A stretch of 64,000 nucleotides of DNA from a phage. The stretch is taken from the sequence record PZ445527.1; one strand, given 5' to 3'. A model generated the notes under the pieces. That model ran no database searches. It saw nothing but the letters and a program-made list of their open reading frames with translations, and had not been told where the DNA came from. Each line of letters starts with the position of its first letter. Positions within the stretch are counted from its first letter, which is position 1. Positions 1,379 through 59,132 of this stretch are shown piece after piece. A program made the translations under genes and the position numbers.

Positions 1379-1719
1379 GGGAGACGCCATACGTAATTAG
1401 CTGTCTGTAGGACCATAGGAGTACCATTATGGTGCATTACTACAGACGTTGGAGAGTAACTATTCGCCAGTTCTGTACGAACCATCTCACGTTCTTCTCC
1501 AGTTTCAATATTTTTAACAACCACCTTCATTTTGAGAGGTGTCAGTTCAGAGAGCGGTTTCCAAGAGTCCTCAATTTCAATTCCTACCTTTTTCTCAATT
1601 AACATGAGAACTTCTAGTGTATCATCTGGAATACTAATATTATTATTTACAAACTGTAACAGCTCATGCAAAGTATTTAATTCGTTGAAATTAAGTTTCA
1701 TCTTTAAGAATATCCTCAA
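1375..1719 (-). CDS. hypothetical protein (114 aa)
   Basis: Minus-strand ORF in a tightly packed gene chain. Confidence 0.55.
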   Translation of the reverse strand: MRIFLKMKLNFNELNTLHELLQFVNNNISIPDDTLEVLMLIEKKVGIEIEDSWKPLSELTPLKMKVVVKNIETGEEREMVRTELANSYSPTSVVMHHNGTPMVLQTANYVWRLP

Positions 1720-1936
1720 TCATATCACAGGACTGTTGCAATTCGTCAGCAATGCGCTTAACATCGGTCTTCGTCACTTTACCGATTAACATCACTAGTA
1801 GCATAGAAAATATAACAAGGGGAACTGGAATAACAAATAATGCTACCTTAACTACATTCTTTGGTGCCCATGTATGGTATTTAGTAACTAGAACTCCCAC
1901 CACGATTAGATAAAATGCTAGAATAAACATCATCAT
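1691..1936 (-). CDS. small membrane protein (81 aa)
   Basis: Minus-strand ORF with two predicted TM helices and an overlapping junction. Confidence 0.5.
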   Translation of the reverse strand: MMMFILAFYLIVVGVLVTKYHTWAPKNVVKVALFVIPVPLVIFSMLLVMLIGKVTKTDVKRIADELQQSCDMIEDILKDET

Positions 1937-2214
1937 TTTTTAATCTCCGTAATTATCTGTGCACGCATTACTTTATTAGGTAATTTTGTATTCCCAGCTA
2001 TTGCTTCAATATTATTTAGTTTTTCTTTAAGAATATCTGAGCGTCTTTGTGCTAATTCAATATCTTGCTCTTGCTCTAGTAACCGGTGGTGTAGCCCATC
2101 ATTAGTAATGAGCATACTTTCCATGTTTTTTCGTGCGTTTACAATCCCAATAACTCCACCAATCGCTACTAGCGTAGTAAGAACCAGTAACCCAATAAGA
2201 ATTTCAATCAACAT
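1933..2214 (-). CDS. membrane-anchored coiled-coil protein (93 aa)
   Basis: N-terminal TM helix (LIEILIGLLVLTTLVAIGGVIGI) followed by a helical domain. ATGA overlap with the downstream ORF. Confidence 0.55.
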   Translation of the reverse strand: MLIEILIGLLVLTTLVAIGGVIGIVNARKNMESMLITNDGLHHRLLEQEQDIELAQRRSDILKEKLNNIEAIAGNTKLPNKVMRAQIITEIKK

Positions 2215-2378
2215 TAAATGTCCTTACATTTTTCATTGTTTGGAACTAGTTTACACATCTCCACATTTAACTCGTGGATAGAATTGTCTAGTTCTTCTAA
2301 ACGTGTGTGAAGAAAAACTATACTATATATTAACACTCCTAAAAGGAGTGACAGCATAAAAATGGATAGTCTTTCCAT
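2214..2378 (-). CDS. small membrane protein (54 aa, not in the ORF track)
   Basis: TAATG junctions at both ends. Sequence MERLSIFMLSLLLGVLIYSIVFL is a TM helix. Confidence 0.4.
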   Translation of the reverse strand: MERLSIFMLSLLLGVLIYSIVFLHTRLEELDNSIHELNVEMCKLVPNNEKCKDI

Positions 2379-2656
2379 TATTTCTTACCTTTCAGTTGTT
2401 TAACTTCACGCTCAAAGCTAGCTGCACGGCGTTCTGCCACTGCTTGATGCTCCTTAGCAAAGCGTGCCTCTTGTTTTGCTAAGTTAAAGGCCATAGCGTT
2501 CTTGTTAAGAGAATCATACATCTTCTTCATCGCCGGAATAGACATTTTCATCAGTTGCCCCTCAAATCCTTGCATGTCGAGGAGAATTGCTAATACATTG
2601 GCCATTTCAGTCTTGGTAAGGTTAGAGGCGTCGAAGTCTTTAGTCATGTTTTCCAT
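2378..2656 (-). CDS. hypothetical protein (92 aa)
   Basis: Track ORF 2378..2674. The first ATG lies in the conserved promoter leader, so ATG 2656 after GAGAGAGGAAA is the likely start. Confidence 0.55.
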   Translation of the reverse strand: MENMTKDFDASNLTKTEMANVLAILLDMQGFEGQLMKMSIPAMKKMYDSLNKNAMAFNLAKQEARFAKEHQAVAERRAASFEREVKQLKGKK

Positions 2657-2688
2657 TAGAATTTCCTCTCTCATTAATTTATGAACTT

Positions 2689-2717
2689 ATTATACAGAAT
2701 TTTGAGGTTTAAAGCAA
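2689..2717 (-). promoter_or_regulatory. T5-type early sigma70 promoter (TTGCTT-17-TATAAT)
   Basis: Exact hexamers and 17-nt spacer read on the minus strand, followed by the conserved AT-rich leader and RBS. Confidence 0.75.
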
Positions 2718-2734
2718 CTGAATTTTTTAATTAC

Positions 2735-3166
2735 TTACCAATCGTTAACAACACCAGAGAACTCAGAAGCAAAAACTTTCTCAAATTTTTCTGCAATTTC
2801 AGGATGATCCTTACAGATCAACTCAATACATGCTTCTGGAGTCATTCCTTCGTCTTCAGGATCACCATAATACTTGTCCCAAAGATCGTCAGGGATGATG
2901 TGCTCTGCCAAATCTTGGAAAGAGATTAGCTGATAACGTTCTGCTTCCTCAGGGATAAGGATTTCACAAAGATCTTTATCTATATCACTACGGTAATCAG
3001 CAATTAGCAGGGCATTGCAAGCATGACACTCCCAAACCATCAAGCGTTCAGAAATAGAATTAGACTTATCCTGAATGTAGGACTGAAACAGGGTTCGAAA
3101 AGTAGCTTTAACTTGTTCAAACTTATCTGCTGCTGCAAAAACTAGAGCTTTATCAACTTTGTTCAT
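2735..3166 (-). CDS. hypothetical protein (143 aa)
   Basis: First ORF after promoter 3197..3225, with RBS GAGAAGGAAA. Confidence 0.6.
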   Translation of the reverse strand: MNKVDKALVFAAADKFEQVKATFRTLFQSYIQDKSNSISERLMVWECHACNALLIADYRSDIDKDLCEILIPEEAERYQLISFQDLAEHIIPDDLWDKYYGDPEDEGMTPEACIELICKDHPEIAEKFEKVFASEFSGVVNDW

Positions 3167-3196
3167 TTTGTTTCCTTCTCATCAATTTATAAAGTA

Positions 3197-3225
3197 ATTA
3201 TACAGAAACTTAGGCATTTTAGCAA
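3197..3225 (-). promoter_or_regulatory. T5-type early promoter (TTGCTA-17-TATAAT)
   Basis: Hexamers and spacer read directly; leader is TTATAAATTGATGAG. Confidence 0.75.
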
Positions 3226-3341
3226 ATAAAACTTTTAATTAAAATGCCTAATCCTGTACTAATAGCAATACAAATGATTATAAGTATTGCTACTGCTTGT
3301 ATGACTCGTTTAATGATAACCTCAGCTATATACTTAGACAT
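3219..3341 (-). CDS. possible small membrane protein (40 aa, not in the ORF track)
   Basis: MSKYIAEVIIKRVIQAVAILIIICIAISTGLGILIK has one TM helix. It overlaps the end of the phosphoesterase gene by 8 nt. Confidence 0.3.
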   Translation of the reverse strand: MSKYIAEVIIKRVIQAVAILIIICIAISTGLGILIKSFIC

Positions 3342-3855
3342 TTAACATCCAGCTAGTTTTATCATGGGAAGTATACTTACCACTCATGATGTCTTCCAGG
3401 CGTACTGGTGATTTTGCATACTCTACACAAACGTTAATATAACGAGGGTCTCCCATTAACTCAAAGTGAGTATGCCCATGTAAGTTCTTTTTACCCCTCA
3501 GCTCCTCTGGATGTACTGGAGCATGGGAAAGCCAAAAGTTTTTATACTTAACTAGGGATTGTACATTATCTACTACTCCTACTAAGTCTTTGAAAGATAA
3601 CCCTTCTCGTTCTAAGTCGTGGTTCCCCAAAACTAATATAGTTCTAACATTGCTAAAGAGTTTTTCGAACTTTTCCAAACCATTTCTAGATACAAATGCA
3701 TCTCCTAAAATATAAAATACTGTACGCTTATCTTTCATGGATGTAATAGTATCCATAATAAATTCATCATGCTCTTCCATAGTAGAGAAGATTGGTCTGA
3801 ATTTAGTAATATTTGCATGTCCTAAATGGAGATCACTCCAAAAGCAAACTTTCAT
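3334..3855 (-). CDS. calcineurin-like metallophosphoesterase (173 aa)
   Basis: Metallophosphatase motifs SDLHLGH, GDAF, GNHD and GHTH in the canonical order. Confidence 0.8.
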   Translation of the reverse strand: MKVCFWSDLHLGHANITKFRPIFSTMEEHDEFIMDTITSMKDKRTVFYILGDAFVSRNGLEKFEKLFSNVRTILVLGNHDLEREGLSFKDLVGVVDNVQSLVKYKNFWLSHAPVHPEELRGKKNLHGHTHFELMGDPRYINVCVEYAKSPVRLEDIMSGKYTSHDKTSWMLNV

Positions 3856-4730
3856 TAAAGGATCCTCTGTACACCACAGCTATTATTTTTGTCAGTGGTA
3901 AATGCTGTGATTTTGCCAGTTTCATCATTAACCTGCGCAACCGTCAACTGCCCGTTGAAAACACCGCCAGTATCAAGATAAACACGGTTTTTATAAAGAA
4001 GTGGGTAAGGTACTCCAGTATGCCCGTGAAACACGAAATCTATCCCTTTAACTTCTGGCACTTCCACCATATATTCTTCTTTAAATCCTGCATAACGCTG
4101 GAAATAGGGGTGTTCCTCAACATTTTTAGACAAGTGGAAGCCTATTTCTTGGATTACATCTCGATCCCATAAATATGGTTCAACATGGTATCCAGGAGGG
4201 TCATGTGGGTCTTCCTTAGCTGCTTCTACTTGTGCAATAAGGTTATCCCATACTGGGGTTTCAACTTCGTTACCACATTCTTTGTACATAAAAGGTACAC
4301 CACCATGAACAACACCATATTTCTTGCCACGATGTTTAACAGTTAGGAATACTGGCATTTTTTCAGCCATGTCTTCGGCAATATTTTTAATGGTATCTGC
4401 ATCTAGTTCATTCATAGCCCACATACCACCGTTATACATCCAGTTAGCCCAATCTCCTACAATCATAAACTGGTCATGATTTCCACGAACGCTACAGAAA
4501 CGTGGATTATACAGGAATTTGGCTAAAACTTGTAGGTTCTGCGTGCCTCGATCAATTAAATCTCCCACGCATACAACGCAATCTTTCTTGCCGTTATAGC
4601 CAGCTAATTGTAGTGCATCTTCTAGCAAATCGTTGCATCCATGAATATCACCAACAAAGAATAAGTTAACATCATCAGGTACTACTAGTGTTTTATGTAC
4701 ATTAAATTCTTTTTTCATAATTATTCCCAA
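3855..4730 (-). CDS. serine/threonine protein phosphatase (PPP / lambda-phosphatase family)
   Basis: Motifs GDIHG, GDLIDRG and GNHD. The start may be ATG 4718 rather than 4730. Confidence 0.8.
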   Translation of the reverse strand: MGIIMKKEFNVHKTLVVPDDVNLFFVGDIHGCNDLLEDALQLAGYNGKKDCVVCVGDLIDRGTQNLQVLAKFLYNPRFCSVRGNHDQFMIVGDWANWMYNGGMWAMNELDADTIKNIAEDMAEKMPVFLTVKHRGKKYGVVHGGVPFMYKECGNEVETPVWDNLIAQVEAAKEDPHDPPGYHVEPYLWDRDVIQEIGFHLSKNVEEHPYFQRYAGFKEEYMVEVPEVKGIDFVFHGHTGVPYPLLYKNRVYLDTGGVFNGQLTVAQVNDETGKITAFTTDKNNSCGVQRIL

Positions 4731-31014: not shown

Positions 31015-31547
31015 TAATAAGTAACCAATTCCTGTACAAATCGCAGGCTGTTATCACTGTTTGCGCCAACTGCATAGACTAATCGAGTGGATTCATAGTT
31101 ATAATCCAGTATCATACTATCTAGGTGTGTATCTGCCTCTAGCTTCTGTTCGCTAAAGATTGTAGATACAAAAGCACTTTCAATATGCCCATGTTGGTAC
31201 ATTTCTAGAAGAAGACTAGCTCCACCTAGAACTACTGTTTGCTGATCTTTTAGAAAGGTAGGTAATGTATCACCTATCATTGATATGGGAGTGTAAATAT
31301 CGTGTGTAATATCGTCTGGCAGTGGACGATCAGCACGAATAAATAGGTCAGAAGCTCCAATCATACGTTCCCTAACGGTATATGGAAGAGCTAAATAAGT
31401 ACCCGCACCAATGATGATATTATCGGGATTCAACACGTCCAGTTGGGAATAGAAAGCATTCAGCTCTTCCTTGAAGGAGCCCCAAGGAAGCTTACCCCGG
31501 AGGCCGAACTCCCCATTCGGCCCAACTGCATACATTGCTGTAATCAT
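31014..31547 (-). CDS. frd: dihydrofolate reductase (177 aa)
   Basis: N-terminal DHFR signature with GKLPW; sits between nrdB and thyA with overlapping junctions. Confidence 0.8.
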   Translation of the reverse strand: MITAMYAVGPNGEFGLRGKLPWGSFKEELNAFYSQLDVLNPDNIIIGAGTYLALPYTVRERMIGASDLFIRADRPLPDDITHDIYTPISMIGDTLPTFLKDQQTVVLGGASLLLEMYQHGHIESAFVSTIFSEQKLEADTHLDSMILDYNYESTRLVYAVGANSDNSLRFVQELVTY

Positions 31548-32689
31548 AGGAAATCTCCAAATTCATTACCCAAATCTTTCAGGGTATCCATAGACGTTTC
31601 TGTGACTTGACCTACACGGTAGGCTGCACCAATCTGGATTTCTTGTGGAGCAGGCTGTAGAGAGGTAGTATCCAACCAGTTCATGATCCACGGAATAGGG
31701 TTTTTGGTGATTACTGGTAAGTGACTAGGCCATTCTACACCAATGTGCATAAATGCATTACGCCCCACAAAGTACAGATATTCTTCTAGAAGTTCTGCAT
31801 TCAAACCAATCAGACTACGACCTTTGAAGATGAAATGACCCCATTCAATTTCAGTTTTCAGAGTTTTCAGGAGCTGTGCTGGTGCTTTAGCCACTGCTTC
31901 ATCTACCAGATCTTTGTCAAACTGCTGGAACATAATCTGGATGATTGTTTTAGACATCTGCGTGTGAAGGGCCTCATCCTTAGCAATCAACTGCAGATTT
32001 TTAGCAATACCTTGCAGAATATCGTTCTCTGCTAACGCAAAGGTACATGCAAAGGATGCGTAGAACTGCATTGCTTCCAGACCGTAGATTGCAAAATAAG
32101 CATCTAACAGTTTAGCCTGAGTTTCACGCTTAACTTCAGGGAACTCAGTTTCTGGGTATGTATTGTCACCACGATGATCACGTACTGCGATGAAATACTG
32201 ACCTAACTGGTACAGTTCATCAAATAGTTCAACAGAATCTGCGATACGTGCAAATGCTTCTTGGTTTTTAGTTACAGAATCAATAAATTCTGCCGGATCA
32301 GTCAACACATTACGAATAATATTGCTATAGGCACGACTATGCAGGTCTTCAAAGTAGCTCCACTGTTTTAGCATTCCTTCCAGTTCAGGGCGGCTTACAA
32401 GCGGCATAATAGCTGCTTCAGGTGCGCGACTAATGAAAGAATCTGTTTGGGTCTGCCATGCTAAGTTCAGGAGTGTAATTTCCTGAATTTCACGAGGGAG
32501 GTTAGGCCATTGTTTCTTATCAGCCTCTAAACTGATTTCTGTCTCAGTCCAAAATTGAGAGCGTTGCAGAAGTGCCAGACGCTCTAATTCTGGATGTGCT
32601 ACGCGTACATAATCTGCGATACCTAGAGAATCGCCCAGGAAAAGATCAGCGTTAGTATGATCCCAATTCAGGTTTAGTAAAGTAGTCAT
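31544..32689 (-). CDS. nrdB: ribonucleotide reductase class Ia beta subunit (381 aa)
   Basis: Di-iron ligand pattern (E..H in FEDLHSRAY and KDEALH) and an acidic C-terminal alpha-binding tail. Confidence 0.9.
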   Translation of the reverse strand: MTTLLNLNWDHTNADLFLGDSLGIADYVRVAHPELERLALLQRSQFWTETEISLEADKKQWPNLPREIQEITLLNLAWQTQTDSFISRAPEAAIMPLVSRPELEGMLKQWSYFEDLHSRAYSNIIRNVLTDPAEFIDSVTKNQEAFARIADSVELFDELYQLGQYFIAVRDHRGDNTYPETEFPEVKRETQAKLLDAYFAIYGLEAMQFYASFACTFALAENDILQGIAKNLQLIAKDEALHTQMSKTIIQIMFQQFDKDLVDEAVAKAPAQLLKTLKTEIEWGHFIFKGRSLIGLNAELLEEYLYFVGRNAFMHIGVEWPSHLPVITKNPIPWIMNWLDTTSLQPAPQEIQIGAAYRVGQVTETSMDTLKDLGNEFGDFL

Positions 32690-32755: not shown

Positions 32756-33247
32756 TTATAAACTATCAAGCTCCAATAGTTTAGCATCACGCCATTCTAT
32801 AGCATCCTCTAATTCTTTAAATGTTTTTGTATATTTTACGCCTTTACGAGCTATCTGGACTTGATATGATCCACTAGCTTTTTGATGAATATTTTTAATA
32901 CCTAGCTTATTGTCTTTATGCGCCCCGACATTCTTTCCGTTACTGAATCTATCAGAAGCTACTAGGTTAATAGCTCTATTATCATGTCGTATTCTATTAT
33001 CGTGGTCTACTTCAGGTGGCAGATACCCATGAATTTTAGCAAAGATTACCCTATGGGCTAAGTAGGGGTATCCTTTAATATTTAATACTATATATCCTGT
33101 AGATTTATCTAAGGAGCCTGCTGGTTTTCCGGCATATTTGGTATTAAATGTTTTATTATCTCTAGGTCTATGAGTCAATATTCCAGTATATGGATCATAA
33201 TCAAATAATTTAGCTACCTCTAGATGATCTTCTAATGTTTTTGACAT
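32756..33247 (-). CDS. HNH homing endonuclease between nrdA and nrdB (about 163 aa)
   Basis: HNH_3 motif VDHDNRIRHDNRAINL plus an AP2-like C-terminal half. The track ORF starts at 33262, but MSKTLEDH at 33247 is more likely. Confidence 0.8.
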   Translation of the reverse strand: MSKTLEDHLEVAKLFDYDPYTGILTHRPRDNKTFNTKYAGKPAGSLDKSTGYIVLNIKGYPYLAHRVIFAKIHGYLPPEVDHDNRIRHDNRAINLVASDRFSNGKNVGAHKDNKLGIKNIHQKASGSYQVQIARKGVKYTKTFKELEDAIEWRDAKLLELDSL

Positions 33248-33311
33248 AATTATAATTTCCAACCAATTAGTATAAAAATAAGAGGGTTATAATTAACCCT
33301 CTTTACTAGTT

Positions 33312-36300
33312 TTATAAGGTGCAGCCACCTGAAGAACATCCTGTAGTTTCTCCAGCTCCTCCACCATTCGCAGTGTTAAAGTTAGCATAATACCAGGTTT
33401 TTATACCATACTTAACCGCAGTCATAAAGTCACGAACTACTACTGGGCCAGGGATGATTTCATTCTCGAATTTAGAGTAATCATAATACATCTGGAAACT
33501 TGATGACTGACTCAAGAATTTTTGGTAAACGGCGTTCCACTTGATCCACTCAATACGATCTACATCATAGGCCAGTTTATAGCTCATGAGAGTATCCCAA
33601 TCAGTTGCACCTGGGGCAATTGCAATTACTTTATTCACTGCACTACCCTTGATAGATACAATCTTACGAGGTGGTTCAATAGAGTTAGTAACGCCTAACA
33701 GAACAGAGGAACTTTCTCCCGGCATCTGCGCAGTCAGAACAGAGTTACGCATACCGTATTTCAGAATGTCTGCACGCAGAGATTCCCAATCCATTTCTAG
33801 ACCTACGGATACCAGCTCATCAACAGTTTTCTTATACGTGTCGATTACCAGAATTCCTTTGGATGGTTTAGTACGATTAAACCATTCACATGCACCTTGT
33901 TCTTTAGCCAGACGTACAGAGGCTTTATGTAGGAAGTAAGACAGTTTTTCAGCTTCACGATGAATCCAGTTACGTGCTTCAACGCCTTCATAAGCCAAAC
34001 CTTCCGCCGCCATTGCACCTGCTGCGTTCATCAGACCAATACCAACATTACGACGTTTCTTAGCCGTATATTCCATAGTTGGGAACGGATAATCCTGAAT
34101 TTCAATGATGGTATCAACGAATTTCAGGAGGATGTAGCAAGTTTTCTCCCACTCAGCCAGAGATTCCATGCGTCCTAGTACAACACCACCTAAGTTACAC
34201 AGAGATACTTCACCAATATCCTCTGGCTTCATTTGATCAAGCTGCTCTTTTGTCTTATACAGCTCTGTGATATGATGGAACGGGCGTGTAGGCTGAGTAA
34301 TTTCTACACAGTTACCCGCTAAAATGCCATTAAATACACCTAAGTTTAATTTAGGTTCTGTAAAGCAATAAGTATCACTAATACGACCAGTAAACTCAAC
34401 GTTAGTTACAGTTACAAAACGGGTTGCGTCTCTATTGGGGCGTGTTAGGTTTAAGAGTTTCTCTTTATCCAAAGAGAGTCCTAAATCTTTAAGTTTCCAG
34501 AAGCCACTACTCCCCACAATAAGCCTACTAGTCTCCTTGCAGTGGTATAGTTTACTAGTACCAGTACCATCTGGTAACTCGTGGTCACCTTCTTTGCGTC
34601 CTAAAATAATCTTGCTAGTAACCCCCAATTCTAGTAACAAATCCTTCACTTTACTTAGAAAATCAGGCTCTGCCGAAGCAACCACAATACTAGGAGTTGT
34701 GCCATTTTTCTGTATGCAGCCATCTGCATCTAAATATCCCTCTAACCATTTGATACGGCTATCAATAGTATACTCTGGGCCAGGTACAAAATACTTCGGC
34801 ATTAAATCAGACTTAACAATATAGCTCAGTCTACCTGTGCTGTCCAGTAATCCACTTCCCTGAATTTCTGCGTCAATTTTATCCACTAATGGTAGTTTGC
34901 CACCTTTTTCATAGAAGTACAGCTTAGGTTCTCCATGTCTTCCATAAGTTCCATCTCCAGTGAAGAAACCGTTAGTATAAGGAGATTTTAGTACCATATT
35001 TCCATGATCTACAATAGGATTACTAAATTTAGGCATTTTCATACCTACTTGCAAGTCTACTGCTCGTACCTCTTCTAGCCCCTGTTTGAAAGAGGTACGA
35101 CGATCCTCTCTGACATATTTGGGCTGGTGGTAGAACTTATGATAAAGAGTAGATTCAATAGTAGATCCATCAGAGAATGTGATTTTTATCAACTCCTGAG
35201 CTTCCCCAGTTTTAGTAGGGATAACTGTTGACCATTCTTGTCCGTTCCAAATCTCTACTTCTTTACCAACTAAATCAATAATCTCTATGTTACCATTTTT
35301 GGTTAAAATTTTTGTTTCTGGAGCTACACAAAGGTTTGTCATACGGATTGGATCAAGGAAGTTACCGTGACGATTAGATTCCCCGATGTGGTGCGCATAC
35401 ATACGTCCTGTTTCCATTCGGATACGTAGCCAAGTATCTAGGATTTCTTTTGCAGAGACTTTAGGAGCTGCTGGAACTGTTTTTCCTTCGTGGTCGATCT
35501 TTGTAAGAGATGCCACACGTTTCTCCGCTGCCACGTAGATTTCTTCAAATTTAGCCTCGTCATCACTATAAAACGCTTCATGAACTTCTGGAGCATAGAA
35601 GTATGACATTAGCGTAATATCTTCATTTTTCAGATAACGTTTTAACAAAAGATTGTTGAAGCTCAGAGAATAATCCATCTTATCAATTTTATTCTCGTCT
35701 GTAGCACGTTGTTGCTTAACCTGCATCAACTGAATGATTTCAGGGTCAAAGTATGGATAAGACACTGTAGCAGAACCACCACGAGTTTGCTGAGTATTGG
35801 CCTTTACTGAGCGATCAATGTGTCGATAATATGGCAGTTTTCCGGAATGCGGGAATGCCCCATTTCGCACCGGATCAGCAATTGATCTGCTTTCAAGATG
35901 ATACCCGATTCCCGCTCTGGCTGCAACCATTTTGAAGACGATGTGCTCGGCGGTGTCGATTGAATCCAACGTGTCAGTGGAATCCACGAGGCAGCAACTA
36001 GCAAATCCACGGTCACTAGAGCGCAGACCAACCAGTGGCGGCGTAGGAACGTTGATTTTGTGGAGCGACATTGCGTTGTAGAGGTCGATTGCATCTAGAA
36101 TTGTCCAGTTAGGTTGAGATAACATCGCCATTGCCATACCCATGTAGGCAAACTGCGGAGTTTCATAAATTTCACCAGTGGCTATGTTGCGGCGGGAATA
36201 CTTATCAAAGAACTGCTTCAGTCCACCACTAGTAAAAAGACGGTCACGATCATGGTCGATAACCTGATTCAGAGCTTCAAATTGCTCATCGGTAATCCAT

Positions 36301-36659
36301 GCACTCATGTCTTCCCATGCACCTACGCTAACCATGTGGTCATGGAAGAAGCGCAGAGAAGGTGGTTCGAAGGAATCATAAAGGCGTTTACGCATTTGCG
36401 CAAGACGTAATTCCTTTGCTGGCACATCGTATGCTGGGTTATCTTTGATAAGGCTTTCAGCAGCCTTAATTAATGCGTCCATCAGAGTGTCGGAATCTAC
36501 AACCCCTTTAGGCAGAGTTTTTTGAGCAGCCATAGTAATGGCTGACCAACTTACATCAACTGTTTTGCAACCATACTCTGCCCAACCATTGAGTTTTTCA
36601 GGAGCAAAGTCTTCTACAGTACCGTCACGTTTAATTACTTTTTCAATGCGATGGCTCAT
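33312..36659 (-). CDS. nrdA: ribonucleotide reductase class Ia alpha subunit precursor containing an intein (1115 aa; about 775 aa after splicing)
   Basis: ATP-cone (VIKRDGTVEDF), RNR barrel motifs and a C-terminal CSSGGC redox pair. Start at ATG 36659 after AAGGAAAA; the track ORF extends to 36764 across the promoter. Confidence 0.9.
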   Translation of the reverse strand: MSHRIEKVIKRDGTVEDFAPEKLNGWAEYGCKTVDVSWSAITMAAQKTLPKGVVDSDTLMDALIKAAESLIKDNPAYDVPAKELRLAQMRKRLYDSFEPPSLRFFHDHMVSVGAWEDMSAWITDEQFEALNQVIDHDRDRLFTSGGLKQFFDKYSRRNIATGEIYETPQFAYMGMAMAMLSQPNWTILDAIDLYNAMSLHKINVPTPPLVGLRSSDRGFASCCLVDSTDTLDSIDTAEHIVFKMVAARAGIGYHLESRSIADPVRNGAFPHSGKLPYYRHIDRSVKANTQQTRGGSATVSYPYFDPEIIQLMQVKQQRATDENKIDKMDYSLSFNNLLLKRYLKNEDITLMSYFYAPEVHEAFYSDDEAKFEEIYVAAEKRVASLTKIDHEGKTVPAAPKVSAKEILDTWLRIRMETGRMYAHHIGESNRHGNFLDPIRMTNLCVAPETKILTKNGNIEIIDLVGKEVEIWNGQEWSTVIPTKTGEAQELIKITFSDGSTIESTLYHKFYHQPKYVREDRRTSFKQGLEEVRAVDLQVGMKMPKFSNPIVDHGNMVLKSPYTNGFFTGDGTYGRHGEPKLYFYEKGGKLPLVDKIDAEIQGSGLLDSTGRLSYIVKSDLMPKYFVPGPEYTIDSRIKWLEGYLDADGCIQKNGTTPSIVVASAEPDFLSKVKDLLLELGVTSKIILGRKEGDHELPDGTGTSKLYHCKETSRLIVGSSGFWKLKDLGLSLDKEKLLNLTRPNRDATRFVTVTNVEFTGRISDTYCFTEPKLNLGVFNGILAGNCVEITQPTRPFHHITELYKTKEQLDQMKPEDIGEVSLCNLGGVVLGRMESLAEWEKTCYILLKFVDTIIEIQDYPFPTMEYTAKKRRNVGIGLMNAAGAMAAEGLAYEGVEARNWIHREAEKLSYFLHKASVRLAKEQGACEWFNRTKPSKGILVIDTYKKTVDELVSVGLEMDWESLRADILKYGMRNSVLTAQMPGESSSVLLGVTNSIEPPRKIVSIKGSAVNKVIAIAPGATDWDTLMSYKLAYDVDRIEWIKWNAVYQKFLSQSSSFQMYYDYSKFENEIIPGPVVVRDFMTAVKYGIKTWYYANFNTANGGGAGETTGCSSGGCTL
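34311..35330 (-). mobile_element. intein (340 aa) with a LAGLIDADG homing-endonuclease domain, inserted in the NrdA catalytic N-L-C-x-E loop
   Basis: N-terminus MTNL|CVAPETKILT, C-terminus GILAGN|CVEITQPT. Dodecapeptide motifs NGFFTGDGTYG and LEGYLDADGCIQ. Confidence 0.85.
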
Positions 36660-36697
36660 TTGGTTTTCCTTTTTATAGTTATCAGGATTTAAGGAAT

Positions 36698-36726
36698 ATT
36701 CTACATTATTATTGGTCATTAGGCAA
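36698..36726 (-). promoter_or_regulatory. sigma70 promoter of nrdA (TTGCCT-17-TAGAAT)
   Basis: Hexamers and spacer read directly, between the terminator and the nrdA RBS. Confidence 0.6.
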
Positions 36727-36742
36727 ATAAAATTTTCTGATA

Positions 36743-36774
36743 GAAAAGGCCCGAGTATTTTCATACCCAGGCCC
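36743..36774 (-). terminator. rho-independent terminator
   Basis: A 10-bp stem GGCCTGGGTA/TACTCGGGCC (two G:U pairs), loop TGAAAA, followed by TTTTCT. Confidence 0.7.
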
Positions 36775-36803: not shown

Positions 36804-37001
36804 TTAAGTTCTCAGCAGAATATCTATCGAGGTACTTAGTTCACTATAATTGAAGGGCCGATTTGGATTTGAGGTTACAATTTTCCACGCTAGGGTAGTC
36901 TTAGGACTTTCTTCCCCTTCCTTACGTGTAATCATATTAGCAGCGCTCAGTGAAGTACGATGTATTTTAGTTTTTCGGTGTAGATGTACAACGTCTCCCA
37001 T
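36804..37001 (-). CDS. hypothetical small protein (65 aa)
   Basis: ATG 37001 lies 2 nt after the phoH stop, with AAGGTG as RBS. The track's 88-aa version overlaps phoH. Confidence 0.45.
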   Translation of the reverse strand: MGDVVHLHRKTKIHRTSLSAANMITRKEGEESPKTTLAWKIVTSNPNRPFNYSELSTSIDILLRT

Positions 37002-37002
37002 A

Positions 37003-37755
37003 TTACACCTTCCCCATGTCTTTAAAAATATCGTAGAATGCTTTAGACTCAGCAGAACGAACGTTATCAATTAATTCGATCATTGAGAATGGAGCATTTT
37101 CATATTTCTCATAAACTTCCATAAGAAGTGCTAGACCTGAGTCACCTTTAATGTCTTTCTGAGCTATATCCCCGCAGATAATCAAACGGCAGTCTTGTCC
37201 TACACGAGTTAGGAGACAAACCATTGCCTCAACGGAAATATTCTGAGCTTCATCGACAATTACATAGGAGTTGTTGAAAGTTCTGCCACGAGCATGTTCT
37301 ATAGCCAAAAATTTAATTTTCTGACGTTCGACATATCCCTTATAGGCATGATCACCGATGGCCCATTTCATACCATCAGCTATTGGCTCCAACCAAGGCT
37401 CTAGCTTTTCGGCTAGATCACCAGGAAGCATACCAAGAGACTTACCTAGAGGTTCATTAGGACGTACGAGAATCACTTGCTCAATATCTGAGTGAATGTC
37501 TACGAGTTCCTGAGCTGCAAGAACGGACGGAATAAAGGTTTTACCAGTACCTGGCTCACCGATACCCACAGTCACTGTGTTGTTCTTGATCATATTGATA
37601 TATGATTTTTGCTCGCGGTTTTTACCTACTAGGGATTTAGCAACTGGGTTAGCGTAATCATTAGAAAAATCAGCCTGAATTACGTTATTCTCATATTTGT
37701 TGCCACGCTTTCTTGAACCATTGCGGTTCTCTCTTTTTTGACGTGCTTTTCCCAT
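37003..37755 (-). CDS. phoH: PhoH-like ATPase (250 aa)
   Basis: Walker A GEPGTGKTF and Walker B VIVDEAQN. ATG 37755 is 8 nt after TAGGAG, whereas the GTG at 37764 abuts the RBS. Confidence 0.85.
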   Translation of the reverse strand: MGKARQKRENRNGSRKRGNKYENNVIQADFSNDYANPVAKSLVGKNREQKSYINMIKNNTVTVGIGEPGTGKTFIPSVLAAQELVDIHSDIEQVILVRPNEPLGKSLGMLPGDLAEKLEPWLEPIADGMKWAIGDHAYKGYVERQKIKFLAIEHARGRTFNNSYVIVDEAQNISVEAMVCLLTRVGQDCRLIICGDIAQKDIKGDSGLALLMEVYEKYENAPFSMIELIDNVRSAESKAFYDIFKDMGKV

Positions 37756-38081: not shown

Positions 38082-38747
38082 ATGGTAAGAAAGAAAATAA
38101 CTACAGAAGATGTGAACTTAGCACTTGCTCCCAGAGGAATAATTATGCTAAGCACGTATATATCAGCTAAATCCAATGCTATATTTAAGTGCTCTAATGG
38201 GCATAGTTGGGAGGCTAGAGTAGATAATGTAAAAGGTGGGAGAGGTTGCCCTTATTGTGCTAGTCGTACTTTAGATCTTAAAGAGGTAAATGAATCCTTA
38301 GCTGCTCGTGGAATAAAGATGGAAGGTAAATACATCAATTCTAAGAGTAAAATTATGTTCAGCTGTGAGAATGATCATAGGTGGGAGTCTACCCTTGATA
38401 GTGTTAGAAATCATAATTCTGGTTGTCCTATATGTTTATTAGAGAAGGATAATTATCCTACTAACGTATATATTTTAGTAAGTAGTATGGGAACCAAAAT
38501 AGGGATGTCTAGCAGAACTAAAGATAGACTCAGAGATATTAAAACTTCTTCTAACATACATGATTTAAAAATATTTAAGGAATATAGCTTTTCAGATAGA
38601 TCAAAAGCTGTGCGTATTGAAAGAGAAGCCCATTTACAGTTTAAGGAATATAATTGTCAGTACAAAGATTTTGATGGTGCTACAGAATTTTTTAGTATTG
38701 AGCCAGAAGTAGTAGCAAGGTTTATTGAGGAAATAATTAATGAATAA
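38082..38747 (+). CDS. T5orf172 (GIY-YIG-related) domain protein with two N-terminal zinc ribbons (221 aa)
   Basis: Duplicated C..H...C..C modules (CSNGHSWE...CPYC, CENDHRWE...CPIC), then VYILVSSMGTKIGMS...RLRDI...GATEFF. Confidence 0.7.
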   Translation: MVRKKITTEDVNLALAPRGIIMLSTYISAKSNAIFKCSNGHSWEARVDNVKGGRGCPYCASRTLDLKEVNESLAARGIKMEGKYINSKSKIMFSCENDHRWESTLDSVRNHNSGCPICLLEKDNYPTNVYILVSSMGTKIGMSSRTKDRLRDIKTSSNIHDLKIFKEYSFSDRSKAVRIEREAHLQFKEYNCQYKDFDGATEFFSIEPEVVARFIEEIINE

Positions 38748-40587
38748 AGATGAATTGATTAGAAACTGCAAAGAAATTATTGAGGGTTCTGCTGATGAAG
38801 AGCTTCTCTTTAATAATGCGAATAAACCCTCTGAGCGTTTCCCTACACAAAGGGATATGCTTGCAGGGGAATTGAGTAAATATCTGATTCTAGAAGAAAT
38901 GCCAATTCAGATTCGAAATGCTCATATGATTGGAGATATTCATTTCCATGATGCTGACTATGCTGCATTAGGCATGACTAACTGTTGCCTAGTAGCCCTG
39001 GAAGATATGTTGAAAAATGGTATGAAAGTTGGTAATGCTGAAATTAGTACACCAAATTCTATTACTACTGCGGCGGCTATTACTGCTCAGATTATCACTC
39101 AGGTTAGCTCCCATCAGTATGGTGGTACTTCTGTAGATCGCCTTGATGAAGTATTAGCCCCTTATGTTCGTAAGTCCTATGATAAAAATCATGCGTTTGC
39201 AAAACGTTGGACTAAGGATGAAGCTAAAGCATCTGTAATGGCTACGGAGATGACTGAAAAAGAAGTCTATGACGCTTGCCAGGGTTTAGAATATGAAATC
39301 AATACCATGTTCAACTCTAACGGTCAGAGTCCATTTATTACCTTTGGTTTTGGTCTAGGAACTTCTTGGGAAGCACGTCTAGTACAGAAAGCAATACTGA
39401 AAGTACGCATGGATGGTTTAGGTATCAATAAACGTACAGCTATCTTCCCGAAACTGGTATTTGTACTTCGTGATGGCGTAAATATGAAACCAGGGGATGT
39501 TAATTATGACATCAAGAAGTTAGCTATGAAATGTACTGCTGAACGTATGTATCCAGATTATATCAGCTATGATAAGGTTGTGGAAGTTACTGGAGACTAT
39601 AAAGTTTCTATGGGCTGCCGTTCATTCCTAGCTGCTGCAGAAGATGGTGAAACTGCCGGTCGTAATAACTTAGGTGTTGTTTCTGTAAACTTGCCTAGAA
39701 TTGCTATCGAAGCTGAAGGAAATATTGACCTATTCTTTGATTTGCTTGAGCTACGTGTAGATACAGCATTAAAAGCGTTGGAGTGGAGAGTTGATCGCTT
39801 AAAATACATTCAAGCTAAAGCTGCACCCATCCTCTATATGTCAGGAGCCTTTGGATTACGCTTAGGGCCTGATGAATATGTATTCGATCATTTCTATAAC
39901 CGTGCTTCTGTATCTCTAGGGTATATTGGTTGCCATGAAATGCTACAGTTCATGTTTGGCAAAGATGTAGACACAATGTCCGAGACCTGCATCAAGTTTG
40001 TTCAGCGTGTATTGCAGTACATGCGGGATAGAGTCGATCAGAAGAAGGAAGAAACTAAGTTAGGTTATAGCCTGTATGCTACACCATCAGAGTCCCTATG
40101 TGATCGCTTTTGTCGTCTAGACCGTGAATATTTCCCGGAGCATGAAGATATTCTGTCCAAAGGATACTACACTAACTCTCACCACCTTGATGTGGAACGT
40201 AAAGTTGCCCCTAACGTGAAATTTGATTATGAATCTAACTTTACTCCGATTGCTTCTGGTGGGTGTATCTCTTATGTAGAACTACCAGATATGAAACGAT
40301 TCCCGGATGCACTGGAATGGGTTATTAATTATGCTGCTAGTAAGGTTCATTACTTCGGTATTAATACTCCAGTGGATTCCTGTGGTAAATGTGGATTCTT
40401 AGGTGAAACAGTAGCATCCGAAGATGGATTCAAGTGCCCTATCTGTGGTAATCATGACCCTGAAACTCTTGAAGTAACTCGTCGAGTTTGTGGGTATCTT
40501 GGAAATCCAGGTGCTCGTCCGTTTAACCCAGGAAAACAACATGAGGTTATGGGCAGGGTGAAACATCAGGATATTCGAGCTAAATAA
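38740..40587 (+). CDS. nrdD: anaerobic ribonucleoside-triphosphate reductase (class III, 615 aa)
   Basis: C-terminal Zn site CGKCG...CPICG and glycyl-radical motif RRVCGYLG. Confidence 0.9.
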   Translation: MNKDELIRNCKEIIEGSADEELLFNNANKPSERFPTQRDMLAGELSKYLILEEMPIQIRNAHMIGDIHFHDADYAALGMTNCCLVALEDMLKNGMKVGNAEISTPNSITTAAAITAQIITQVSSHQYGGTSVDRLDEVLAPYVRKSYDKNHAFAKRWTKDEAKASVMATEMTEKEVYDACQGLEYEINTMFNSNGQSPFITFGFGLGTSWEARLVQKAILKVRMDGLGINKRTAIFPKLVFVLRDGVNMKPGDVNYDIKKLAMKCTAERMYPDYISYDKVVEVTGDYKVSMGCRSFLAAAEDGETAGRNNLGVVSVNLPRIAIEAEGNIDLFFDLLELRVDTALKALEWRVDRLKYIQAKAAPILYMSGAFGLRLGPDEYVFDHFYNRASVSLGYIGCHEMLQFMFGKDVDTMSETCIKFVQRVLQYMRDRVDQKKEETKLGYSLYATPSESLCDRFCRLDREYFPEHEDILSKGYYTNSHHLDVERKVAPNVKFDYESNFTPIASGGCISYVELPDMKRFPDALEWVINYAASKVHYFGINTPVDSCGKCGFLGETVASEDGFKCPICGNHDPETLEVTRRVCGYLGNPGARPFNPGKQHEVMGRVKHQDIRAK

Positions 40588-55615: not shown

Positions 55616-56502
55616 GTAGAATAACAGAATTACTTGATCTTAAGGGAATTGAGTATAAAGATACTGGTGGAGATATTTTAATCTGTTGCTTAAATCCAGA
55701 TCATGACGATAAACACCCAAGTTTGCGTATTGACCCTGAAACAGGTATTATGCACTGCTTGAGTTGTGGCTTCGGTAAAGGTATACCGAGCATTTACCAT
55801 TATTTTAATGAGACTCAGTACCGACAGTCCCCAAGACTATCGCAAGTACGTAAAAAGATTTCAGAGATTAGGAATGGATCAACGAATCTTGCAATTCCTG
55901 AATCTGCTTACCTTTTCGAAGGTGATTTCCGAGGTATAAGTTCTAAGACCTTGAAGAAATATTTTGCTTTCCAACACCAAGCAGACTGGGAAGGCAGAAT
56001 TGTATTCCCAATCACAGATGCTGTTGGACGCAATATCCTATTTTTGGGTCGTTCTATAAACAGTTCTGCCCCTCCTAAATACTTAGTAAAACCAAAACAA
56101 GTTTCACCCCCAATTTTTCCTGTACGATATAATACTCCAGTTCTTATTCTAGTTGAAGGCATCTTTGATATGCTGAACCTAGAGGATAATGGTATAGACT
56201 ATGCTTCTTGCTGCTTTGGTACACATCAGTTTACTTCGGATAACATTGCAGATAAGTTCAGTCCTTATATTATTGCCGGTGTAAAAGTTGTTGTTATCTT
56301 ACTAGATAATGATGCTTCTGGTAATAAAGCCGCACAAGCATTGGCCAAGCTAATTCGTACAAAAACACGTTTAACACCTGTAGTTGCTAACTTCTTACTT
56401 CCAGAGGGTAAGGATCCTGGTGATTTAAATAAAGAAGAAGTCGATACGTTAGCAAAACGTATTGAAATTTTAGTTGCTGAATCGCTTAAAGATTTGGTAT
56501 AA
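55612..56502 (+). CDS. DNA primase (DnaG-like; CHC2 zinc finger plus Toprim, 296 aa)
   Basis: Zn finger CCLNPDHDDKHPSL...HCLSCG. Toprim residues VEGIFDML and LLDNDASGNKAA. Confidence 0.85.
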   Translation: MSRITELLDLKGIEYKDTGGDILICCLNPDHDDKHPSLRIDPETGIMHCLSCGFGKGIPSIYHYFNETQYRQSPRLSQVRKKISEIRNGSTNLAIPESAYLFEGDFRGISSKTLKKYFAFQHQADWEGRIVFPITDAVGRNILFLGRSINSSAPPKYLVKPKQVSPPIFPVRYNTPVLILVEGIFDMLNLEDNGIDYASCCFGTHQFTSDNIADKFSPYIIAGVKVVVILLDNDASGNKAAQALAKLIRTKTRLTPVVANFLLPEGKDPGDLNKEEVDTLAKRIEILVAESLKDLV

Positions 56503-56503
56503 T
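56474..56503 (+). promoter_or_regulatory. sigma70 promoter (TTGCTG-18-TATAAT) inside the primase 3' end
   Basis: Hexamers read directly. The -10 box overlaps the primase stop codon. Confidence 0.55.
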
Positions 56504-56564
56504 ATATTGGTAAGTTAGAGAAGAAACATTGAAGTTATACTTACTTACCAAGAGGAGATTAAAT

Positions 56565-59132
56565 TTGAAAATCGCAGTAGTTGATAAAGCTCTAAACAAC
56601 ACTCGTTATGATAAACATTTCCAGCTATACGGCGAGGAAGTTGATGTATTCCATATGTGTAATGAGAAGTTGTCCGGTCGTTTGCTCAAAAAGCATATTA
56701 CTATCGGGACTCCAGAAAACCCATTTGACCCGAATGATTATGATTTTGTTATACTGGTAGGTGCCGAACCTTTTCTGTACTTTGCAGGTAAGAAAGGTAT
56801 TGGTGATTATACCGGTAAACGTGTAGAGTATAATGGATATGCTAACTGGATTGCTAGTATCAGCCCAGCCCAGTTACACTTTAAACCTGAAATGAAACCA
56901 GTTTTTGATGCAACAGTAGAGAATATCCACGATATTATCAATGGTCGTGAGAAGATTGCAAAAGCTGGTGATTACCGTCCTATTACTGGTCCTGACGAGG
57001 CAGAAGAATATATCAAGATGGTATATAATATGGTTATCGGACCTGTCGCATTCGACTCCGAAACCTCAGCACTATACTGTCGAGATGGTTATCTGCTTGG
57101 TGTTTCTATATCTCACCAAGAGTATCAGGGTGTATATATTGATTCTGATTGTCTCACAGAGGTTGCAGTATATTATCTCCAGAAAATTCTGGATAGTGAA
57201 AACCACACTATTGTTTTTCACAACTTGAAGTTTGATATGCACTTTTATAAGTACCACCTGGGACTTACTTTTGATAAAGCACATAAAGAACGCAGGCTCC
57301 ATGATACCATGTTGCAGCACTATGTTCTAGATGAACGTCGTGGTACTCATGGCTTGAAATCTCTAGCAATGAAGTATACCGATATGGGTGACTATGACTT
57401 CGAACTAGATAAGTTCAAAGATGATTACTGCAAAGCACATAAAATCAAGAAAGAAGATTTCACCTATGATTTAATTCCGTTTGATATTATGTGGCCTTAC
57501 GCTGCGAAAGATACAGATGCCACCATACGTTTGCACAACTTCTTCTTACCAAAGATTGAGAAGAATGAAAAACTTTGCAGTCTGTATTACGATGTTTTGA
57601 TGCCTGGTTGCGTATTCTTGCAGCGTGTTGAAGATCGTGGTGTACCTATTTCTATCGATCGTTTAAAAGAAGCTCAGTATCAGTTAACCCATAATCTGAA
57701 TAAAGCCCGTGAGAAACTGTACACTTATCCGGAAGTTAAACAGCTAGAACAAGATCAGAATGAAGCGTTTAACCCGAACTCTGTTAAGCAACTTCGTGTT
57801 CTTCTGTTCGATTATGTTGGTTTGACTCCAACTGGTAAGTTAACAGATACTGGGGCAGATTCTACGGATGCAGAAGCTCTGAATGAACTGGCTACGCAGC
57901 ATCCAATTGCTAAAACTCTACTAGAGATTCGTAAGCTGACTAAGCTGATCTCTACTTATGTTGAGAAGATTCTACTGAGTATTGATGCAGATGGTTGCAT
58001 TCGTACTGGTTTCCATGAACATATGACTACTTCTGGTCGTCTGAGTTCTTCTGGTAAACTGAACCTGCAACAGTTGCCCCGCGATGAATCTATTATCAAG
58101 GGTTGTGTAGTAGCTCCTCCAGGATATCGTGTAATCGCATGGGACTTAACAACTGCGGAAGTTTATTATGCTGCTGTTCTATCTGGGGATAGAAATATGC
58201 AACAGGTATTTATCAACATGAGAAATGAACCTGATAAATACCCAGACTTCCACTCTAACATCGCACACATGGTATTTAAGCTCCAATGCGAACCTCGTGA
58301 TGTTAAAAAGTTATTTCCAGCTCTGCGTCAAGCAGCTAAAGCAATCACCTTTGGTATTCTGTATGGTTCTGGCCCAGCTAAAGTAGCTCATTCTGTTAAC
58401 GAAGCTCTTCTGGAGCAGGCTGCTAAGACAGGCGAACCGTTTGTAGAGTGTACTGTTGCAGATGCTAAAGAGTACATTGAAACTTACTTCGGTCAGTTCC
58501 CGCAGCTTAAGCGTTGGATTGATAAGTGCCACGATCAGATAAAGAATCATGGATTTATCTACAGTCACTTTGGTCGTAAACGTCGTCTGCATAATATCCA
58601 CTCCGAAGACCGTGGTGTTCAGGGTGAAGAAATCCGTTCTGGATTTAACGCAATCATTCAGTCTGCTTCTTCTGATAGTCTCCTTTTAGGTGCTGTAGAT
58701 GCAGATAATGAGATCATTTCTCTTGGCCTAGAACAAGAGATGAAGATTGTTATGCTGGTTCATGACTCCGTAGTTGCTATTGTTCGTGAAGACTTGATCG
58801 ACCAATACAATGAAATCCTGATTCGTAATATTCAGAAAGACCGTGGTATCAGTATTCCTGGCTGTCCGATTGGTATTGATTCAGATTCTGAAGCTGGAGG
58901 TTCTCGTGACTACTCTTGTGGTAAGATGAAGAAACAGCACCCATCAATCGCTTGTATTGATGATGATGAATATACTCGTTATGTCAAGGGTGTATTACTT
59001 GATGCAGAGTTCGAGTATAAGAAACTAGCTGCAATGGATAAAGAGCATCCAGATCATAGCAAGTACAAGGATGATAAGTTTATTGCTGTATGTAAAGATT
59101 TGGATAACGTGAAAAGGATTCTCGGTGCTTAA
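56565..59132 (+). CDS. DNA polymerase, family A with 3'-5' exonuclease (855 aa, TTG start)
   Basis: AGGAG plus 7 nt plus TTG gives MKIAVVDKALNNTRYDKHF, recognised as the T5 polymerase N-terminus with 855 aa. Exo motif FDSET and Pol A motifs are present. Confidence 0.92.
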   Translation: MKIAVVDKALNNTRYDKHFQLYGEEVDVFHMCNEKLSGRLLKKHITIGTPENPFDPNDYDFVILVGAEPFLYFAGKKGIGDYTGKRVEYNGYANWIASISPAQLHFKPEMKPVFDATVENIHDIINGREKIAKAGDYRPITGPDEAEEYIKMVYNMVIGPVAFDSETSALYCRDGYLLGVSISHQEYQGVYIDSDCLTEVAVYYLQKILDSENHTIVFHNLKFDMHFYKYHLGLTFDKAHKERRLHDTMLQHYVLDERRGTHGLKSLAMKYTDMGDYDFELDKFKDDYCKAHKIKKEDFTYDLIPFDIMWPYAAKDTDATIRLHNFFLPKIEKNEKLCSLYYDVLMPGCVFLQRVEDRGVPISIDRLKEAQYQLTHNLNKAREKLYTYPEVKQLEQDQNEAFNPNSVKQLRVLLFDYVGLTPTGKLTDTGADSTDAEALNELATQHPIAKTLLEIRKLTKLISTYVEKILLSIDADGCIRTGFHEHMTTSGRLSSSGKLNLQQLPRDESIIKGCVVAPPGYRVIAWDLTTAEVYYAAVLSGDRNMQQVFINMRNEPDKYPDFHSNIAHMVFKLQCEPRDVKKLFPALRQAAKAITFGILYGSGPAKVAHSVNEALLEQAAKTGEPFVECTVADAKEYIETYFGQFPQLKRWIDKCHDQIKNHGFIYSHFGRKRRLHNIHSEDRGVQGEEIRSGFNAIIQSASSDSLLLGAVDADNEIISLGLEQEMKIVMLVHDSVVAIVREDLIDQYNEILIRNIQKDRGISIPGCPIGIDSDSEAGGSRDYSCGKMKKQHPSIACIDDDEYTRYVKGVLLDAEFEYKKLAAMDKEHPDHSKYKDDKFIAVCKDLDNVKRILGA

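Follow-up and report, generated by a model that had tools for sequence, protein, structure and literature searches.

A putative class 1 LAGLIDADG intein next to the radical cysteine of the class Ia ribonucleotide reductase of a T5-like phage

The window analysed here is a stretch of 64,000 nucleotides of phage DNA (sequence record PZ445527.1). Its minus strand carries nrdA, the gene for the alpha subunit (NrdA) of a class Ia ribonucleotide reductase (RNR), and within this gene lies a block of 340 codons (34311..35330) that was interpreted, with a probability of about 0.85, as a class 1 intein that bears a LAGLIDADG homing endonuclease and interrupts the reductase at its finger-loop motif N-L-↓-C-V-E (the arrow marks the insertion point). 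This intein is already annotated in a related phage, its family is long known and the site is of a well-known kind. By sequence comparison, the copy in the window is a new allele of a known intein rather than a feature that is itself new.

An intein-containing nrdA reading frame

The nrdA open reading frame (33312..36764, minus strand) was uninterrupted over 1150 codons in its longest form. It comprised an N-extein (35331..36764, minus strand) ending in ...PIRMTNL, the intein (34311..35330, minus strand; 340 aa, 37.9 kDa) and a C-extein (33312..34310, minus strand) starting with CVEITQ. On the minus strand the intein block contained exactly 340 codons and 0 stops, with CVAPETKILT first and GVFNGILAGN last, and it was flanked by ...FLDPIRMTNL before and CVEITQPTRP... 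after. The plus strand of the same block contained many stops, leaving the minus strand alone open. An earlier reading of the bare sequence (hereafter the original prediction) had proposed an intein with these termini, followed directly by CVEITQPT; translation recovered all of them, on the minus strand, which that reading had left unstated. The delimitation of the intein relied on the translation, on profile and fold matches, and on the 'intein' annotation of the orthologue in Escherichia phage SelmaRatti.

The start of nrdA was ambiguous, with in-frame ATG codons at 36764, 36719 and 36659 (minus strand) among which GenBank records choose differently. The ATG at 36659 had the best Shine-Dalgarno sequence (AAGGA) and coincided with the start of the alignment to Escherichia coli R1. 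Depending on the candidate ATG, the computed mass of spliced NrdA was 87.6, 90.0 or 91.7 kDa, the first of these corresponding to the ATG at 36659. The masses expected in the original prediction were about 88 kDa for the spliced product and about 39 kDa for the free intein, the latter compared to 37.9 kDa computed. The protein was assigned to the NrdA family with 569.7 bits against TIGR02506 NrdE_NrdA (cutoff 341) and E=3e-112 against Ribonuc_red_lgC. The class-1a-specific model NF006578 scored 528 on the interrupted protein, under its cutoff of 813, and a match to the ATP-cone domain was sub-threshold.

Both parts of a bifunctional intein were detected by the hidden Markov model searches that the original prediction had suggested for the Hint and LAGLIDADG domains. 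The insert scored 35.2 bits against intein_Nterm (TIGR01445; cutoff 24.5) and matched the Pfam family LAGLIDADG_3 with E=7.7e-14 over intein residues 194-280, the match to Pfam PT-HINT being sub-threshold. The first two of these scores rule out a chance pattern. Searches with the insert gave no significant match in the PDB by sequence and no family in PHROGs. A structure was predicted with AlphaFold from an alignment of the insert with 15 relatives, and compared to the PDB with Foldseek. The model had a predicted local distance difference test score (pLDDT) of 87.4 and a predicted template modelling score (pTM) of 0.86. Its top matches were endonuclease-bearing inteins, namely TliVMA (7qsu; 1.3e-15), PhoVMA, PI-SceI (1vde) and PI-PfuI (1dq3), and the modelled fold matched 7qsu, 7qst, 1vde and 1dq3 over the full length of the intein (E between 1e-15 and 3e-11). 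The central domain of the model also matched the free LAGLIDADG enzymes I-DmoI and I-Tsp061I (Foldseek E ~1e-5). In the model, a Hint splicing domain was formed by residues ~1-110 and ~301-340, with the LAGLIDADG domain (~111-300) between them. The pseudo-dimeric alpha-beta-beta-alpha-beta-beta-alpha fold was formed by helices 117-126 and 189-203 with beta hairpins after each of them, and this LAGLIDADG core was predicted with high confidence.

The splicing and endonuclease motifs were all located on the minus strand. Block A (CVAPETKILTKNG; 35292..35330) contained Cys1 (codon 35328..35330), the nucleophile of splicing step 1, and block B (GSTIESTLYHKFY; 35130..35168) contained Thr61 and His64, the T-x-x-H pair that aids the N-S acyl shift (PMC4031507). 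Block F (DTYCFTEPKLNLG; 34338..34376) possessed Cys322 at position F:4, and Asn329 where most relatives have His. Block G (VFNGILAGN; 34311..34337) had Gly339 in the penultimate position, not the usual His, followed by the terminal Asn340 (codon 34311..34313). The two dodecapeptides of the endonuclease expected from the original prediction were both present, NGFFTGDGTYG within intein residues 118-130 and LEGYLDADGCIQ within residues 195-207, with both catalytic aspartates kept. LAGLIDADG motif 1 (YTNGFFTGDGTYG; 34941..34979) included FFTGDG with the catalytic Asp126, on model helix 117-126, and motif 2 (WLEGYLDADGCIQ; 34710..34748) included YLDADG with the catalytic Asp203, on model helix 189-203.

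In a 14-member family alignment, Cys1, Val2, Thr6, the Thr and His of block B and the T-C-E of block F were invariant. Cys+1 was conserved across the relatives, as were both LAGLIDADG aspartates, the GDG and the motifs being degenerate in one member only (P0044). The C-terminal junction was ...AGN↓C in the window, and N or Q followed by C in the relatives. The His expected of inteins at position G:6 was replaced by Gly339; among 80 relatives from IMG/VR (described below), this position was Gly in 67, Ser in 12, Lys in 1 and His in 0. Because functional inteins with another residue than His at G:6 are documented (PMC4031507), the assignment as an intein stands despite this residue; at F:4, only one residue is more frequent than Cys (PMC4031507). 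Across the four Tequintavirus copies, the ratio of nonsynonymous to synonymous substitution rates (dN/dS) was 0.07-0.27 for the whole intein and 0.05-0.23 for its endonuclease part, which, with just ~14-22 substitutions per pair, is supportive rather than strong evidence of purifying selection.

Insertion site relative to intein-less alleles and the RNR active site

A megablast search of the nrdA open reading frame against 50,697 phage records matched 529 of them. Query coverage reached at least 80% in just 5 of the 529, and 35 other records among the matches listed had 70-71% coverage each, in two pieces. In the protein alignment, the intein-less orthologue of phage Bf23 was continuous through ...RMTNL-CVEITQ..., its gap corresponding to exactly the 340 residues, and SelmaRatti and Salmonella phage SP3 carried the block. 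The comparison was extended beyond Bf23 to ten further Tequintavirus or Epseptimavirus alleles, and the junction MTNL↓CVEITQ was ungapped in all 11 intein-less alleles (Bf23, T5_ev219, phC17 and eight more). Deletion of the block from the window's NrdA restored this same junction, so that the insertion relative to intein-less T5-group proteins is a clean 340 aa, as had been anticipated. The junction peptide expected of spliced NrdA is ...IRMTNLCVEITQPTR..., and the DNA of the empty site in T5 or Bf23 nrdA was centred on ...ATGACAAACCTT↓TGTGTTGAAATT.... Exteins were 98-99% identical between intein-bearing and intein-less NrdA.

The active site was located by way of Bf23 NrdA, which matched E. 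coli R1 with E=8e-145. The alignment paired ...ldpirmtNlCvEitqptrp... with ...iapvrqsNlClEialptkp..., in which the highlighted residues are N437, C439 and E441 by the printed chain numbering. In the window, the equivalents of N437 and L438 were the Asn and Leu that end the N-extein (codons 35334..35336 and 35331..35333, minus strand), and those of C439 and E441 were the Cys+1 and Glu of the C-extein (codons 34308..34310 and 34302..34304, minus strand). On this alignment the insertion falls between the equivalents of L438 and C439, and residue +1 is therefore the thiyl-radical cysteine of the N437-x-C439-x-E441 loop, in line with the earlier proposal that the +1 nucleophile is the catalytic cysteine itself.

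Judging from the known role of this loop in R1 structures, a precursor with a 340-aa insert at the radical loop would be inactive. The original prediction had concluded that the RNR activity of the phage should depend on protein splicing. This would hold for the class Ia enzyme of the phage and not for its RNR activity overall, because the window also encodes a class III enzyme, NrdD. The host has RNRs of its own.

Copies of the intein in T5-like phages

The remark in the original prediction that no intein is known in the NrdA of T5-type phages was not supported: Escherichia phage SelmaRatti and three Salmonella phages (SP3, Kenya-K36 and Kenya-K42) carry the same intein, with 96.8-97.9% amino acid identity. 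In SelmaRatti (Bas34; MZ501103), the gene is labelled 'intein-containing ribonucleoside diphosphate reductase alpha subunit precursor', with a mat_peptide 'intein' at 56317..57339 and a separate mat_peptide for the reductase. The SelmaRatti, SP3 and Kenya inteins shared with that of the window the gene, the insertion point TNL↓CVE, the termini and the motifs, their DNA being 95-100% identical along the block, and differed from it by 7-11 amino acid substitutions. The SelmaRatti intein was 341 aa long compared to 340 in the window, owing to one extra Ser, and its genomic context differed in that the window has an HNH endonuclease gene between nrdA and nrdB. The literature search found no dedicated description of the SelmaRatti intein or of any intein of a T5-like phage. 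The exact NrdA of the window, searched in its three start variants, was absent from a collection of 15 billion proteins, and the best genome match of the window had 92-94% identity over 81-85% of 24 kb.

The NrdA of SP3 (MG387042) had a second in-frame insert of 304 aa (alignment columns 327-630) in the context ...KANTQQ↓C...VCGN↓SRGG.... This insert possessed Cys1, a terminal Gly-Asn, Ser+1 and an LQADGS motif, and is not annotated as an intein. Its match to intein_Nterm was sub-threshold (14.3 bits). Judging from its sequence, this insert probably represents another intein of SP3 NrdA, unrelated to the first.

Relatives in other phages, iridoviruses and other RNR sites

Relatives of the intein were widespread outside the T5-like phages. 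A tblastn search retrieved 341 phage records with relatives at 40-54% identity, including 92 Vibrio and 115 Rheinheimera records; phages of Proteus, Acinetobacter, Staphylococcus, Vibrio, Aeromonas, Rheinheimera and Caulobacter were among them. Relatives from other phage lineages were ~41-44% identical to the window intein, and most of them end in Gln. The insertion site was (S/T)NL↓C-x-E in all six of the phage relatives inspected. Among published examples, a LAGLIDADG intein has been described in the NrdA of Vibrio phage ICP1 (gp203; Barth et al. 2023, PMC10448857), and inteins in nrdA account for 8 or more of the 20 LAGLIDADG genes that this study counted in its phage data set (PMC10448857). 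From its description there, the ICP1 intein resembles that of the window in kind and in host gene.

A scan of IMG/VR yielded 176 relatives, some of them from metagenome-assembled genomes of giant viruses, and 80 loci (L022-L101) were retained. Among these, 77 were inserted at SN(L/M)↓C-x-E, two at a class II-like NP↓CGE site (the same cysteine) and one at a site shifted by one residue. The motif DTYCFTEP is universal in this set by ascertainment, as it was among the patterns used for the search. Three of the loci (L086, L088 and L091) placed the family at an RNR loop of the N-P-C-G-E type (STVNP↓C...GQ↓CGEILL), and in L091 the site was apparently one residue off (TNPC↓C...GQ↓SEI, with Ser+1). 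The terminal residue was Gln in 63 and Asn in 17 of the 80 relatives. A block F His, seven residues past the Cys at F:4, was present in 44/63 of the Gln-type and 3/17 of the Asn-type inteins (Fisher p=1.7e-4, a test that ignores relatedness). The window intein had Asn both at its terminus and at this block F position.

An exact-sequence look-up of the product of one of these loci (L024) returned protein 085L, the RNR large subunit of Invertebrate iridescent virus 6 (CIV; NP_149548), a eukaryotic virus, whereas the host protein in the window is a phage class Ia NrdA. The CIV RIR1 intein and the window intein were 43% identical over their full length (E=4e-83), and had in common a site of the SNL↓C-x-E type, Cys1, Cys+1, the penultimate Gly, the Cys at F:4 and the LAGLIDADG domain. 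They differed in that the CIV intein has a terminal Gln and a block F His (INHAG), whereas the window intein has a terminal Asn and Asn in block F (KLNLG). The CIV intein, described by Pietrokovski (1998) and Amitai et al. (2004; both as cited in PMC549080 and PMC4031507), is the classical 'glutamine-type' one. Its splicing has been reported (PMC549080, PMC4031507), and the native terminal Gln is reported to support it better than Asn does (PMC4031507). By sequence homology, the window intein belongs to the CIV RIR1-type allele family, without the glutamine-type terminus.

The family was also found at other sites. Four NrdB-resident relatives from phages or metagenomes (P0005, P0006, P0007 and P0044) were 33-37% identical to the window intein. 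They were inserted after a His in an ...xxH↓SETY context with Ser+1, whereas the window intein is at NL↓C with Cys+1, and the LAGLIDADG motifs of P0044 were degenerate. One further relative (P0013) was inserted at a second RNR-alpha site (NTHR↓CAIAPT) and another (P0023) in a non-RNR protein. The identity of these six non-allelic relatives was ~30-37%, and they branched outside the clade of NL↓C-site inteins. In the neighbour-joining tree, the NL↓C-site inteins formed one clade (84% bootstrap) with the NrdB-resident relatives as sister group, those at the second NrdA site and in the non-RNR host being further out. The NrdB of Aquifex aeolicus also contains a LAGLIDADG intein, which separates RNR catalytic residues and splices when expressed in E. 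coli (PMC8772380). By description it resembles the window intein, in another subunit and at another site.

Age of the intein in Demerecviridae

The original prediction had suggested that the intein might be a lineage-specific acquisition, and a recent one was considered and rejected. In the family tree, the window intein was paired with that of Proteus phage PM135 (Demerecviridae, Novosibvirus) with 100% bootstrap. Identity between the two phages was 55.7% for the intein, 53.8% for the N-extein and 62.8% for the C-extein. A recent jump is disfavoured because the intein is as diverged from its PM135 counterpart as are the exteins. The comparison fits a history in which intein and nrdA have long been together in Demerecviridae, and in which loss or non-spread then followed in most Tequintaviruses.

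In the PM135 record (MG030347; L021 in the present set), the intein-containing nrdA open reading frame of 1125 codons (1159..4533) is unannotated, the NrdA label being placed on an upstream coding sequence of 207 nt only. The intein is probably the cause of this annotation gap.

A foreign origin of the intein was also considered on the basis of nucleotide composition and dropped. The GC content was 0.386 in the intein and 0.43 in the exteins, and the GC content at third codon positions was 0.30 and 0.36-0.39, respectively. Composition is uninformative on the origin of the intein because the average GC content of the window is also 0.387.

Proposed mechanism and alternative explanations

Under the interpretation as a splicing-competent homing intein, NrdA would be made as a 125-130 kDa precursor unable to form its active site. 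Its splicing would proceed by the four steps that are standard for class 1 inteins. Cys1, aided by Thr61 and His64, would convert the Leu(-1)-Cys1 peptide bond into a thioester, which would be attacked by Cys+1, the future thiyl-radical cysteine, to give a branched intermediate. Cyclisation of Asn340 would free the 37.9-kDa intein, and an S-N shift would restore the native ...TNL-CVE... loop and yield an active alpha subunit of ~88-92 kDa. The freed intein would cut the intein-less nrdA of co-infecting T5-like phages across AACCTT↓TGTGT(T/A)GA, and recombinational repair would copy the intein into the cut allele. Splicing of the window copy, the activity of its endonuclease and its homing are all inferred from sequence features; splicing draws support from the CIV relative at the same site that is reported to splice.

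Several observations weigh against this interpretation. The equal divergence of intein and exteins from PM135 suits vertical inheritance as well as mobility. Only 5 of the 529 nrdA-matching records had the intein, though the presumed target is nearly unchanged in intein-less phages; this sporadic distribution is compatible with mobility, but few carriers together with a conserved target site argue against frequent homing. Moreover, no co-conversion tract separated the 4 intein-bearing from the 11 intein-less alleles. Regarding splicing, Gly339 and Asn329 leave the intein without both histidines that usually aid Asn cyclisation, and step 3 could therefore be slow. A candidate co-conversion haplotype (silent sites +57, +66 and +69) had seemed fully linked with the intein in a comparison of 4 intein-bearing and 3 intein-less alleles. 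It was dropped after widening to 11, because the intein-less alleles of FGS029, slur09, AZ23 and EH7 share it. The A at +6 (Val+2 codon GTA), found in 3/4 intein-bearing and 0/11 intein-less alleles, was too weak to use.

An intein that splices and has an inactive or barely active endonuclease, inherited vertically as a passenger in a minority lineage of Demerecviridae, would account for its prevalence of ~1% of T5-like records despite the conserved site, for the lack of a co-conversion tract and for its divergence from PM135 in step with the exteins, and degenerate LAGLIDADG motifs do occur in some family members such as P0044. This explanation was held to be unlikely, while being the most serious of those considered: both motifs and both catalytic aspartates are intact in the window copy, the dN/dS of the endonuclease domain is far from 1 (on few substitutions), and the confidently predicted LAGLIDADG core of the model also speaks for a preserved enzyme. 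Given the missing co-conversion tract and the few carriers despite a conserved target, present-day homing activity is uncertain. Loss of splicing altogether, with a functionally dead nrdA and a phage using the host RNR or its own class III NrdD, was judged very improbable. The penultimate His and the equivalent of the block F His are both missing, and a second RNR gene is encoded nearby, but the three nucleophiles and the Thr and His of block B are kept, the frame of 1150 codons is open, and the exteins are 98-99% identical to functional-looking orthologues. In addition, the penultimate His is absent family-wide, including from the CIV intein reported to splice, and functional inteins lacking the G:6 His are documented (PMC4031507).

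The remaining alternative considered, a group I intron with an in-frame endonuclease gene or a permanent domain insertion in NrdA, can be given hardly any credence on the protein-sequence and fold evidence considered. Phage RNR genes often hold introns and free-standing endonuclease genes (PMC3653736), and HNH and T5orf172 endonuclease genes adjoin the nrd genes of the window; against this, the frame is continuous, Hint blocks A, B, F and G lie exactly at the boundaries, and the modelled Hint fold match spans the full length of the block. From R1 structures, 340 residues just before the radical cysteine would also be incompatible with an active site.

Within the interpretation as a splicing intein, the Tequintavirus/Novosibvirus branch combines Gly at G:6, Asn at the block F His position and a terminal Asn instead of the usual Gln, and keeps the invariant Cys at F:4 (Cys322) alongside Cys1 and the radical-site Cys+1. 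It is conceivable from these residues, as a rather remote proposal, that the catalytic arrangement in step 3 departs from the usual one, or that a redox-sensitive disulfide formed among Cys1, Cys322 and Cys+1 gates splicing. If so, maturation of the phage RNR would be conditional and not constitutive.

Neighbouring genes in the nrd cluster

The same-strand neighbours of nrdA encoded NrdB, dihydrofolate reductase and thymidylate synthase. The gene of the beta subunit, nrdB (31544..32689, minus strand), was uninterrupted and lay downstream of nrdA, a gene order shared with the annotated loci of SelmaRatti and Bf23. The class III RNR gene nrdD (38740..40587) was on the plus strand, opposite to nrdA. 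Upstream of nrdA, a small open reading frame of 88 aa (36804..37070, minus strand; Pfam DUF7430, 1e-36) was the counterpart of the conserved 'hypothetical protein' whose gene separates phoH from nrdA in T5-like phages.

The gap between nrdA and nrdB contained a free-standing gene for an HNH endonuclease of 168 aa (32756..33262, minus strand; HNH_3, 8e-09; phrog_99, 1e-47). The gene was absent from this gap in SelmaRatti, SP3, Kenya-K36, Bf23 and T5_ev219, whereas Salmonella phage phC17 has it, under the annotation 'homing endonuclease'. The adjoining 3' end of nrdA (33347..33537, minus strand) was a sharply mosaic block, with 92-100% identity to SelmaRatti, T5_ev219 and phC17 and 71-82% to SP3, Kenya-K36 and Bf23; outside it, nrdA was mostly 86-100% identical to all six phages. 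At the protein level, the two variants of the block were NAVYQKFLSQSSSFQ and VATMQKFFSQSISTN. This pattern could be a footprint of recombination or of an endonuclease target, unrelated to the intein.

A T5orf172/MUG113-type endonuclease gene of 221 aa (38082..38747, plus strand; phrog_681, 7e-49), encoding treble-clef zinc-finger repeats, lay directly upstream of nrdD and overlapped its start at 38740. The corresponding site is occupied by a 'putative homing endonuclease' in SelmaRatti and by none in Bf23. Counting the intein, the HNH gene and the T5orf172-type gene, the nrd cluster of the window therefore contains three separate selfish nuclease elements.

Significance

The 3.4-kb open reading frame should carry the annotation of an NrdA precursor that contains an intein and gives rise to two mature products, the more so as related records are mislabelled: the gene is uncalled in PM135, and several others are labelled just as reductase or hypothetical protein. 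The intein is a further example of a known pattern, in which inteins occupy the most conserved catalytic residues of RNR. A mildly useful addition on the evolutionary side is that its divergence from the Proteus-phage counterpart equals that of the host gene, which points to an intein long resident in Demerecviridae, with no recent jump.

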